This document shows, piece by piece, positions 38,401 to 39,991 of a DNA stretch of 64,000 bases (positions are counted from its first letter, which is position 1; every line of letters starts with the position of its first letter). The notes below the pieces were generated by a model. It was not told the origin of the DNA. It made no database searches and saw only the letters and a program-made list of their open reading frames with translations. The translations under genes were made by a program, and so were the position numbers. Origin of the DNA: Escherichia coli (lineage in GTDB: Bacteria; Pseudomonadota; Gammaproteobacteria; Enterobacterales; Enterobacteriaceae); the NCBI RefSeq assembly GCF_003334405.1, contig NZ_QOWM01000015.1. One strand, 5' to 3'.

Positions 38401-39991
38401 ACGGGATAATGTTACGCCAGTTAAACTCGAAGGGGCGGTCCGGATTACCGATAGCGCGACATTGACTCTGGGAAATGGCGTCGATACCACGCTTGCCGAC
38501 CTGACGGCTGCCAGCCGGGGCAGTGTCTGGCTTAACAGCAATAATTCCTGTGCAGGTACCAGCAACTGCGAATATAGAGTAAACAGTTTGCTACTCAACG
38601 ACGGTGATGTTTATTTGTCAGCACAAACAGCAGCGCCTGCCACAACTAACGGTATCTACAATACGCTGACAACCAATGAACTTTCCGGTAGCGGTAATTT
38701 CTACCTGCATACCAACGTTGCAGGCTCCCGGGGCGATCAACTGGTCGTCAACAACAACGCCACTGGTAATTTTAAAATCTTTGTTCAGGATACCGGCGTC
38801 AGCCCACAGTCTGACGACGCGATGACGCTGGTGAAAACAGGGGGAGGGGATGCTTCGTTTACGCTGGGCAATACCGGCGGTTTCGTTGATCTTGGGACCT
38901 ATGAGTATGTCCTGAAAAGTGACGGCAACAGCAACTGGAACCTGACCAATGATGTCAAACCCAACCCGGACCCCATCCCAAATCCAAAGCCAGACCCAAA
39001 ACCCGATCCAAAGCCAGACCCAAATCCAAAACCAGACCCTACTCCCGATCCAACGCCGACACCCGTTCCGGAGAAACGCATTACGCCTTCTACGGCAGCC
39101 GTACTCAATATGGCAGCAACATTACCGTTGGTATTTGATGCTGAGCTAAACAGTATTCGCGAGCGGTTGAACATAATGAAAGCGAGTCCACACAACAATA
39201 ATGTCTGGGGGGCGACGTATAACACCCGTAATAATGTCACCACCGATGCGGGTGCCGGGTTTGAGCAGACGCTGACCGGAATGACAGTGGGGATCGACAG
39301 CCGTAATGATATTCCTGAAGGAATTACCACGCTAGGCGCTTTTATGGGCTATTCCCATTCACATATCGGTTTTGATCGCGGAGGACATGGCAGTGTGGGC
39401 AGTTATTCTCTGGGCGGCTATGCCAGTTGGGAACATGAAAGTGGTTTCTATCTGGACGGTGTCGTGAAGCTGAACCGTTTTAAAAGTAACGTAGCAGGTA
39501 AAATGAGCAGCGGTGGAGCCGCCAATGGCAGTTACCACAGCAACGGGCTGGGCGGTCACATTGAAACCGGGATGCGATTTACCGATGGTAACTGGAACCT
39601 GACGCCGTATGCATCGTTAACGGGGTTCACCGCTGATAACCCCGAATATCATTTATCCAATGGCATGAAATCGAAATCAGTCGATACCCGCAGTATATAT
39701 CGTGAACTGGGCGCAACGCTGAGTTACAACATGCGTCTGGGGAACGGTATGGAAGTTGAGCCGTGGCTGAAGGCGGCTGTGCGCAAAGAATTTGTCGATG
39801 ATAACCGGGTGAAAGTGAATAGTGACGGTAATTTCGTCAATTATTTGTCGGGCAGACGTGGAATATACCAGGCAGGTATTAAAGCCTCATTCAGCAGTAC
39901 GTTAAGCGGGCATCTTGGGGTGGGGTATAGCCATAGTGCCGGTGTGGAATCCCCGTGGAACGCGGTAGCTGGTGTGAACTGGTCGTTCTGA
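35411..39991 (+). CDS. ypjA: AIDA-I-type autotransporter adhesin
   Basis: ORF 35282-39991; start MNRTSPYYCRRSVLSLLISALIYAPPGMA (signal peptide) at 35411 gives 1526 aa; long G/T/N-rich beta-helical repeat passenger, Pro-rich PDPKPDP linker (~38950-39070), C-terminal beta-barrel ending …AGVNWSF. Confidence 0.88.
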   Translation: MNRTSPYYCRRSVLSLLISALIYAPPGMAAFTTNVIGVVNDETVDGNQKVDERGTTNNTHIINHGQQNVHGGVSNGSLIESGGYQDIGSHNNFVGQANNTTINGGRQSIHDGGISTGTTIESGNQDVYKGGISNGTTIKGGASRVEGGSANGILIDGGSQIVKVQGHADGTTINKSGSQDVVQGSLATNTTINGGRQYVEQSTVETTTIKNGGEQRVYESRALDTTIEGGTQSLNSKSTAKNTHIYSGGTQIVDNTSTSDVIEVYSGGVLDVSGGTATNVTQHDGAILKTNTNGTTVSGTNSEGAFSIHNHVADNVLLENGGHLDINAYGSANKTIIKDKGTMSVLTNAKADATRIDNGGVMDVAGNATNTIINGGTQNINNYGIATGTNINSGTQNIKSGGKADTTIISSGSRQVVEKDGTAIGSNISAGGSLIVYTGGIAHGVNQETGSALVANTGAGTDIEGYNKLSHFTITGGEANYVVLENTGELTVVAKTSAKNTTIDTGGKLIVQKEAKTDSTRLNNGGVLEVQDGGEAKHVEQQSGGALIASTTSGTLIEGTNSYGDAFYIRNSEAKNVVLENAGSLTVVTGSRAVDTIINANGKMDVYGKDVGTVLNSAGTQTIYASATSDKANIKGGKQTVYGLATEANIESGEQIVDGGSTEKTHINGGTQTVQNYGKAINTDIVSGLQQIMANGTAEGSIINGGSQVVNEGGLAENSVLNDGGTLDVREKGSATGIQQSSQGALVATTRATRVTGTRADGVAFSIEQGAANNILLANGGVLTVESDTSSDKTQVNMGGREIVKTKATATGTTLTGGEQIVEGVANETTINDGGIQTVSANGEAIKTKINEGGTLTVNDNGKATDIVQNSGAALQTSTANGIEISGTHQYGTFSISGNLATNMLLENDGNLLVLAGTEARDSTVGKGGAMQNLGQDSATKVNSGGQYTLGRSKDEFQALARAEDLQVAGGTAIVYAGTLADASVSGATGSLSLMTPRDNVTPVKLEGAVRITDSATLTLGNGVDTTLADLTAASRGSVWLNSNNSCAGTSNCEYRVNSLLLNDGDVYLSAQTAAPATTNGIYNTLTTNELSGSGNFYLHTNVAGSRGDQLVVNNNATGNFKIFVQDTGVSPQSDDAMTLVKTGGGDASFTLGNTGGFVDLGTYEYVLKSDGNSNWNLTNDVKPNPDPIPNPKPDPKPDPKPDPNPKPDPTPDPTPTPVPEKRITPSTAAVLNMAATLPLVFDAELNSIRERLNIMKASPHNNNVWGATYNTRNNVTTDAGAGFEQTLTGMTVGIDSRNDIPEGITTLGAFMGYSHSHIGFDRGGHGSVGSYSLGGYASWEHESGFYLDGVVKLNRFKSNVAGKMSSGGAANGSYHSNGLGGHIETGMRFTDGNWNLTPYASLTGFTADNPEYHLSNGMKSKSVDTRSIYRELGATLSYNMRLGNGMEVEPWLKAAVRKEFVDDNRVKVNSDGNFVNYLSGRRGIYQAGIKASFSSTLSGHLGVGYSHSAGVESPWNAVAGVNWSF

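Follow-up and report, generated by a model that had tools for sequence, protein, structure and literature searches.

Linker length variation in the chromosomal autotransporter adhesin YpjA/EhaD of Escherichia coli

We analysed 64,000 nucleotides of Escherichia coli contig NZ_QOWM01000015.1 (assembly GCF_003334405.1), referred to below as the window, whose positions are used throughout. The coding sequence at 35411..39991 (+ strand; 1526 amino acids plus stop) is ypjA, also known as ehaD, and encodes YpjA/EhaD, a chromosomal classical (type Va) autotransporter adhesin. Between the passenger and the membrane barrel of this protein lies an unbroken series of X-Pro dipeptides, and the length polymorphism of intact alleles sits in this linker and not in the passenger, ranging from 28 to 46 residues in steps of two. 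We put at roughly 80% the probability that the region encodes a proline-rich spacer of the adhesin, a role proposed mainly by analogy. Gene and architecture are already known, and the linker polymorphism is of a known kind.

The X-Pro linker and the protein that carries it

An earlier note on this DNA, made from the sequence alone, had quoted a K/P/D-rich linker peptide, KPNPDPIPNPKPDPKPDPKPDPNPKPDPTPDPTPTPVP, which was present letter for letter within 38940-39075, ahead of the barrel. Translation, composition and the AlphaFold2 model delimited the linker as 38 residues, aa 1183-1220 (38957..39070, + strand), in which K, D, N or T alternates with proline. It is a continuous (XP)19, with 19 prolines in 38 residues compared with 15 in the remaining 1488; the longest (XP)n found among 2000 shuffles of the whole protein was 4. 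In the AlphaFold2 model, aa 1186-1219 had a predicted local distance difference test score (pLDDT) below 50 and no secondary structure. Pfam gave a weak match to the trypanosome procyclin EP/PARP repeats (E = 2.8e-07), which is compositional only. Because of the AlphaFold2 layout and the domain matches described below, the X-Pro segment is predicted to be external to the barrel, preceded by the autochaperone end of the beta-helix and followed by the pore helix; a proline-rich segment placed after the autochaperone/junction region and ahead of the membrane domain is the arrangement of an autotransporter proline-rich linker.

At the DNA level, Tandem Repeats Finder reported an imperfect tandem repeat in the linker (38977..39057, + strand; periods 6, 12, 18 and 42), which a second repeat search also recovered; the longest perfectly 6-periodic run of the linker was 11 nt. 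The linker also contains a 19-nt perfect direct repeat, ATCCAAAGCCAGACCCAAA, with copies at 38982-39000 and 39006-39024 on the + strand (38982..39024 overall; spacing 24 nt), an apparent substrate for slippage. The sole other tandem repeat that Tandem Repeats Finder gave for the gene was a two-copy 12-nt repeat at 35459-35482. An antisense open reading frame (ORF; 38899-39330, 143 aa) reads the linker as GSGFGSGFG low complexity and was set aside as a gene, being taken as a by-product of the linker repeat.

The earlier note was right in calling the gene ypjA and an autotransporter. The linker lies in a 4.7-kb + strand ORF with a GTG start (35282-39991); the annotated ypjA start, mapped from the RefSeq start of K-12 strain DH1, corresponds to position 35411, M44 in the numbering of this longer ORF. 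In a megablast search of 5,426 complete E. coli genomes, the whole ORF was 100% identical in DNA to strain 300709 and 99.9% identical to DH1, and in both strains the RefSeq label is 'ypjA: adhesin-like autotransporter YpjA/EhaD'. The position of the gene in the ileY ... ypjA ... ssrA region, with a tRNA-Ile upstream and ssrA downstream, agrees with this identity.

The order of repeats, linker and barrel given in the earlier note agreed with the Pfam and NCBIfam domains and with the AlphaFold2 model, which covered aa 1034-1526 and was built on an alignment of 40 sequences with a predicted template modelling score (pTM) of 0.77. The protein begins with a putative Sec signal peptide, aa 1-29, MNRTSPYYCRRSVLSLLISALIYAPPGMA (35411..35497, + strand), read directly from the sequence as a basic n-region and a hydrophobic core followed by ...GMA; a signal peptide of 29 aa is listed for YpjA (PMC13101318). 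The passenger (35498..38578, + strand) appears from autocorrelation, PF16168, TIGR04415 and composition to be made up of about 54 imperfect, G/T/N-rich repeats of 18-19 residues, predicted to form AIDA-type beta-helix rungs. The note's description of imperfect repeats of about 19 residues was accurate: autocorrelation of aa 30-1056 (G 15.1%, T 12.5%, N 9.1%) under a BLOSUM matrix peaked at a lag of 18 (z = 8.4 against 200 shuffles) and at one of 19 (z = 7.7), harmonics appeared at lags 35-37 and 54, and the Pfam scan, carried out on two pieces of the protein (aa 1-1000 and aa 801-1526), returned 11 AIDA matches (PF16168, E <= 0.001) in the first piece and 2 more in the second. The strand-loop-strand repeat TIGR04415 (NCBIfam) scored 219 bits on the passenger.

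Two side observations concern the same domain. TIGR04415 describes the repeat targeted by autotransporter O-heptosyltransferases of the Aah/TibC type, and the match lies in 35411-38578; in strain 300709, where ypjA is identical, the annotation shows no glycosyltransferase up to 9 kb away from the gene in either direction. A higher-order motif, …AFSI…N.(L/V)LEN.G.L…, recurs in five copies 95-261 aa apart (36322-36375, 36842-36888, 37105-37173, 37699-37767 and 38086-38139), which suggests super-repeats of several 19-residue rungs over the basic period.

The passenger is followed by a predicted pertactin-type autochaperone or junction domain, aa 1057-1179 (38579..38947, + strand; PF03212, E = 8.5e-46). 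In the comparison with solved structures, aa 1064-1180 aligned with residues 422-534 of P.69 pertactin chain 1DAB, and the AlphaFold2 model displayed confident beta-strands until about aa 1179. Beyond the linker, a 31-residue alpha-helix, aa 1226-1256 (39086..39178, + strand; model residues 193-223, pLDDT ~90), is predicted to enter and plug the barrel pore; the BrkA translocator 3QQ2 aligned from aa 1244 onward. The C-terminus, aa 1263-1526 (39197..39988, + strand), is predicted to be a 12-strand outer-membrane beta-barrel, based on PF03797, the beta-domain of autotransporters (aa 1265-1504, E = 1.5e-46), on TIGR01414 (329 bits, where the cutoff is 16) and on the AlphaFold2 model, in which the barrel strands mostly had pLDDT > 85. 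The barrel is homologous to the solved BrkA and Vag8 chains.

A C-terminal 12-strand barrel with a pore-plugging helix ahead of it is the classical type Va arrangement, and AIDA repeats of about 19 residues combined with a pertactin-type autochaperone domain are those of AIDA-I-type, self-associating autotransporter (SAAT)-like proteins. The scores against the equivalog models for Ag43/Cah (NF033177, 347 bits) and AIDA-I (NF033176, 260 bits) were far from the cutoff of 1200, so that YpjA, judged by these models, is related to Ag43 and AIDA-I and an orthologue of neither. In the literature YpjA/EhaD is placed among the AIDA-I/TibA/Ag43-like 'group 4' biofilm-forming autotransporter adhesins, has a reported association with biofilm and is described as being without a published structural study (PMC9289746); a second source covers its reported effects on biofilm and adhesion (PMC12547504).

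Linker length alleles, the passenger and gene decay

The earlier note had expected linker length to differ between strains and had named an invariant length as the outcome that would speak against it. Lengths read directly from complete genomes did differ, with alleles of 28, 30, 36, 38, 40, 42 and 46 aa. The 38-aa linker of the window was also found in DH1 and BL12, a linker of 40 aa in the EhaD allele of O157:H7, and one of 36 aa in PSJ-42 and EC11. A separate 6-nt deletion gave 36 aa in 027_SK3, whose gene is otherwise 99.8% identical to that of the window; the 36-aa linker occurs as two independent alleles. The remaining lengths were 28 aa in LR-24 (-30 nt), 30 aa in ET474 (-24 nt), 42 aa in DLI.6n (+12 nt) and 46 aa in VG48B2 (+24 nt). 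Every one of these differences was an in-frame multiple of 6 nt that kept the X-Pro register, and the X positions varied among K, D, N, T and E between lineages.

Allele frequencies were estimated from two independent, evenly spaced samples, each of 60 of the 2526 matching records. In the first, 30 records had the reference length, 20 were 6 nt shorter, 7 were 6 nt longer and 1 was 30 nt shorter; in the second, 31 records had 38 aa, 18 had 36 aa and 9 had 40 aa. Over both samples, the 38-aa class accounted for ~51-53%, the 36-aa class for 31-34%, the 40-aa class for 12-15% and all others for 2%. Among all matching records, 1283 were at least 99% identical to the window allele, and the 40-aa O157 allele was represented by 377 records at >= 95% identity and by 268 at >= 99%. 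The rare alleles were carried by very few records, 5 for the -6 nt allele of the 027_SK3 type (4 of the listed records being 100% identical to it) and 2 for the -30 nt allele. The 36-, 38- and 40-aa classes are each tied to a particular allele lineage and the remainder are rare, recent events; the linker behaves as a length polymorphism that tracks lineage, unlike a hypermutable tract.

The -24 allele (ET474) lacks, and the +24 allele (VG48B2) adds, exactly one 24-nt unit bounded by the 19-nt perfect repeat, and the likely cause, judging from this signature, is slipped-strand mispairing. Several rare derivatives of the K-12-type allele likewise had their end-points at short direct repeats. With sizes in multiples of 6 nt and positions at short direct repeats (6-24 nt), the linker insertions and deletions probably arose by replication slippage.

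The earlier note had suggested that the repetitive DNA is prone to recombinational length variation. This held for the linker as far as a change in length is concerned, with changes that look like slippage at direct repeats of 6-24 nt and not like recombination, and failed for the passenger, whose repeat number, which the note had proposed to compare across genomes, was effectively invariant. Six intact orthologues measured 1522-1528 aa, with a YG dipeptide at aa 329-330 as their only insertion or deletion outside the linker, and the 18 full-coverage records of a spread sample ranged from -12 to +6 nt relative to the gene length in the window. Variation in passenger repeat number beyond that one dipeptide was thus rejected for these two sets. 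We also rejected long passenger DNA repeats as drivers of recombination: the repeats present are stretches of 22-54 nt at 60-83% identity. Being so short and so diverged, they would be poor substrates for homologous recombination, consistent with no recombination on this time scale.

A paralogue of ypjA, also labelled ypjA by the Prokaryotic Genome Annotation Pipeline (PGAP), is located between ymgJ and minE. Its passenger is shorter than and mosaic relative to that of ypjA. The 445 nt upstream of the two genes are 90% identical, and a 39-aa upstream ORF has a counterpart on the paralogue side (35/40 identical); since the upstream DNA and the small ORF are common to both, the promoter/leader region was probably duplicated along with the gene. 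The linker of the paralogue is an almost pure (NP)n with n = 16, 22, 23, 26, 28 or 33, that is, a different length in each of the six strains examined (in ETEC4071 it occupies 5208-5441 of the retrieved locus), and its perfectly 6-periodic DNA runs reach 65 nt. Repeat number differed between strains in both genes, the linkers measuring 28-46 aa in ypjA and 44-78 aa in its paralogue; length varies much more in the (NP)n tract than in ypjA, whose tract is interrupted.

Gene decay is a larger source of variation in ypjA than linker length. Only 2436 of the 5426 complete genomes (45%) kept >= 80% of the gene. A recurrent deletion of ~1320 nt in D3 and EC0430, from about nt 2777 to about nt 4097 of the gene, removes the linker and fuses the passenger at aa ~926 to the middle of the barrel at aa ~1366, leaving a pseudogene; its junction lies at imperfect microhomology (GCA / G.GGTGG.GC), and the deletion was ruled out as a change in repeat units. 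In another genome IS1 truncates ypjA, and one O157 record carries a 1-nt frameshift somewhere in the gene. Many genomes matched just ~9% of the query; the single such genome that was fetched, O26:H11, owed its match to a remnant of the paralogue beside minE.

Proposed role of the linker and alternative explanations

Dipeptides alternating a charged residue with proline form extended, rigid, polyproline-II-like rods that serve as spacers. By these physics, the X-Pro segment of YpjA would be an extended, fairly stiff, charge-alternating rod of this type outside the barrel mouth, ~10-12 nm in length (38 residues at ~3.1 A each give ~12 nm at most). Acting as a spacer or hinge, it could lift the ~54-rung beta-helical adhesin off the outer membrane and through the lipopolysaccharide (LPS) layer, with replication slippage supplying the insertions and deletions. 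Each step of two residues would correspond to ~0.6 nm, and the common alleles would differ by ~1 nm on a molecule tens of nanometres long; it is unlikely that this difference matters much, and any effect of linker length on adhesin reach or antigenicity, which the earlier note had raised, would be small. What persists seems to be the X-Pro alternation alone, so that gaining or losing a few residues appears to be tolerated and is probably near-neutral. In the paralogue, a range of ~14-24 nm could matter.

Several points weigh against assigning this spacer role and against reading much into the alleles. The role is inferred from analogy with the domain order of TibA and from the physics of X-Pro segments, and the low pLDDT means that AlphaFold2 cannot place the linker, which is distinct from evidence for a polyproline-II rod. 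The allele frequencies come from samples of 60 records and from identity bands, short of a full census, and the three common lengths, each bound to a lineage, say little about mutation rate. Moreover, 55% of the genomes lack an intact copy of ypjA, and the gene may be unexpressed in some strains.

Of the alternatives, a low-complexity insertion that is simply tolerated, has no length-dependent role and varies as neutral slippage noise is a possibility that we regard as the lesser but still worth weighing. It is consistent with a survey of homologues, a set consisting mostly of fragments and paralogous families that served only for this survey and for the AlphaFold2 alignment: most matches, including E. 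coli proteins of 771 aa, had no Pro-rich segment at the threshold used, and some segments were as short as ~10 residues. The occurrence of the 28-46 aa alleles in otherwise similar genes, some of them already pseudogenes, points the same way. However, the X-Pro alternation was unbroken in every allele, including the 78-aa linker of the paralogue, and Pro-rich segments of unrelated sequence recurred at one position in several genera: segments of 10-53 aa were found in homologues from E. albertii, Citrobacter, Salmonella, Klebsiella and a compost metagenome, with unrelated composition and at a matching distance from the C-terminus (~300-320 aa). What is kept, as far as sequence comparison tells, is the X-Pro pattern at a fixed site, leaving sequence and exact length free. 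The unbroken alternation and the recurrence across genera together suggest that selection has favoured an extended spacer of some length.

It is doubtful that the linker is an exposed immunodominant or ligand-binding segment, polymorphic because of diversifying (immune) selection of the kind suggested for the repeat regions of pertactin. In favour of this reading are the predicted extracellular position and lack of structure of the segment, its polymorphism between lineages in both length and choice of X residues, and the precedent of pertactin, with polymorphic proline-rich repeats in the same class of protein and a homologous autochaperone domain. Against this, the common alleles lie 2-4 residues apart and are each tied to a lineage, derived alleles are rare (2-5 records each), and the deletion or decay of ypjA in over half of the complete genomes speaks against the gene being under strong selection in its finer points. 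Antibodies selective for R1 or R2 were not found in the pertactin study (PMC8931430).

A further proposal, to which we assign a similarly low probability, takes in-frame X-Pro slippage as a length-tuning device that would match the projection of the adhesin to the thickness of O-antigen or capsule, or allow escape from antibodies; the (NP)16-33 tract at the minE locus would then be evolving fast, and the interrupted K/D/N tract of ypjA would have become stabilised.

Assembly or sequencing artefacts are a very improbable source of the length differences: low-complexity repeats are prone to mis-assembly and one O157 record has the frameshift mentioned above, but the tract is imperfect and only 114 nt, easily spanned by single reads, identical alleles recur in many independent complete genomes (as in the 268 O157-type records and the 4 records with the -6 nt allele above), and all differences are in-frame multiples of 6. 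Least credible of all is a contingency locus that switches ypjA on and off by phase variation, as a short-unit tandem repeat within a surface-protein gene might suggest; this was rejected because the unit is 6 nt and all linker variants are in frame, and the longest perfect periodic run is just 11 nt.

Genomic setting and known systems

The neighbourhood of ypjA in the window is unlike that of K-12. About 20.6 kb of an integrated element (39992-60594) separate the gene from the tmRNA gene ssrA (60595-60957, - strand), compared with ~160 nt between the ypjA stop and ssrA in island-free strains. The element differs from CP4-57 of K-12; in 300709, the first ~9 kb examined are annotated with a DUF6387 protein, an HTH regulator, an IS3 transposase and a relaxase. 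The 39-aa upstream ORF (35227-35346, + strand) is the 'hypothetical protein' WP_001120794.1 and lies 65 nt upstream of ypjA. The G+C content is 45.3% over the window, low for E. coli, and 49.1% in ypjA. Rfam at gathering thresholds returned nothing within or adjoining ypjA; elsewhere in the window it matched MicA (3257-3328, - strand), naRNA4/CssrE (9926-10003, - strand) and tRNAs at 1-68 (cut by the window start), 270-343 and 32300-32372, the last of which coincides in position with the tRNA-Ile that the annotation of 300709 places upstream of ypjA.

Our literature search found no paper cataloguing ypjA linker alleles. The gene has been studied mainly for its association with biofilm, and the present finding matters little. 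For typing or surface-display work with YpjA, three common linker lengths are to be expected, and a practical point for users is that over half of complete E. coli genomes are without intact ypjA. The (NP)n tract of the paralogue would be a better system for asking whether linker length tunes adhesin function.

YpjA of K-12 (b2647) and EhaD of enterohaemorrhagic E. coli (EHEC) O157:H7 are the same gene. DH1 shares the 1526-aa product and the 38-aa linker with the window and differs from it by three mismatches in ypjA, although the window strain is not K-12; EhaD of O157 differs from the window by its 40-aa linker. X-Pro spacers are known elsewhere, in the (EP)n-(KP)n segment of TonB, in the hinge of OmpA and in the EP repeats of trypanosome procyclin, and their likeness to the YpjA linker is one of convergent composition, with no homology.

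The closest counterpart in domain order is TibA, which was compared by its published description: 'an additional proline-rich domain', residues 627-677, separates its junction region from its membrane domain (PMC3835316). As in YpjA, passenger repeats, junction/autochaperone region, proline-rich domain and membrane domain follow one another, and both passengers match the heptosylation-target repeat model. The two differ in that their linker sequences are unrelated, the YpjA passenger is much longer, and no heptosyltransferase is annotated near ypjA. In pertactin, the proline-rich repeats R1 and R2 vary in copy number among alleles (PMC8931430), and the domain immediately before the YpjA linker is a homologue of the pertactin autochaperone domain; R1 and R2, however, are described as beta-helix loops, their repeat units are different, and pertactin is cleaved from its barrel.

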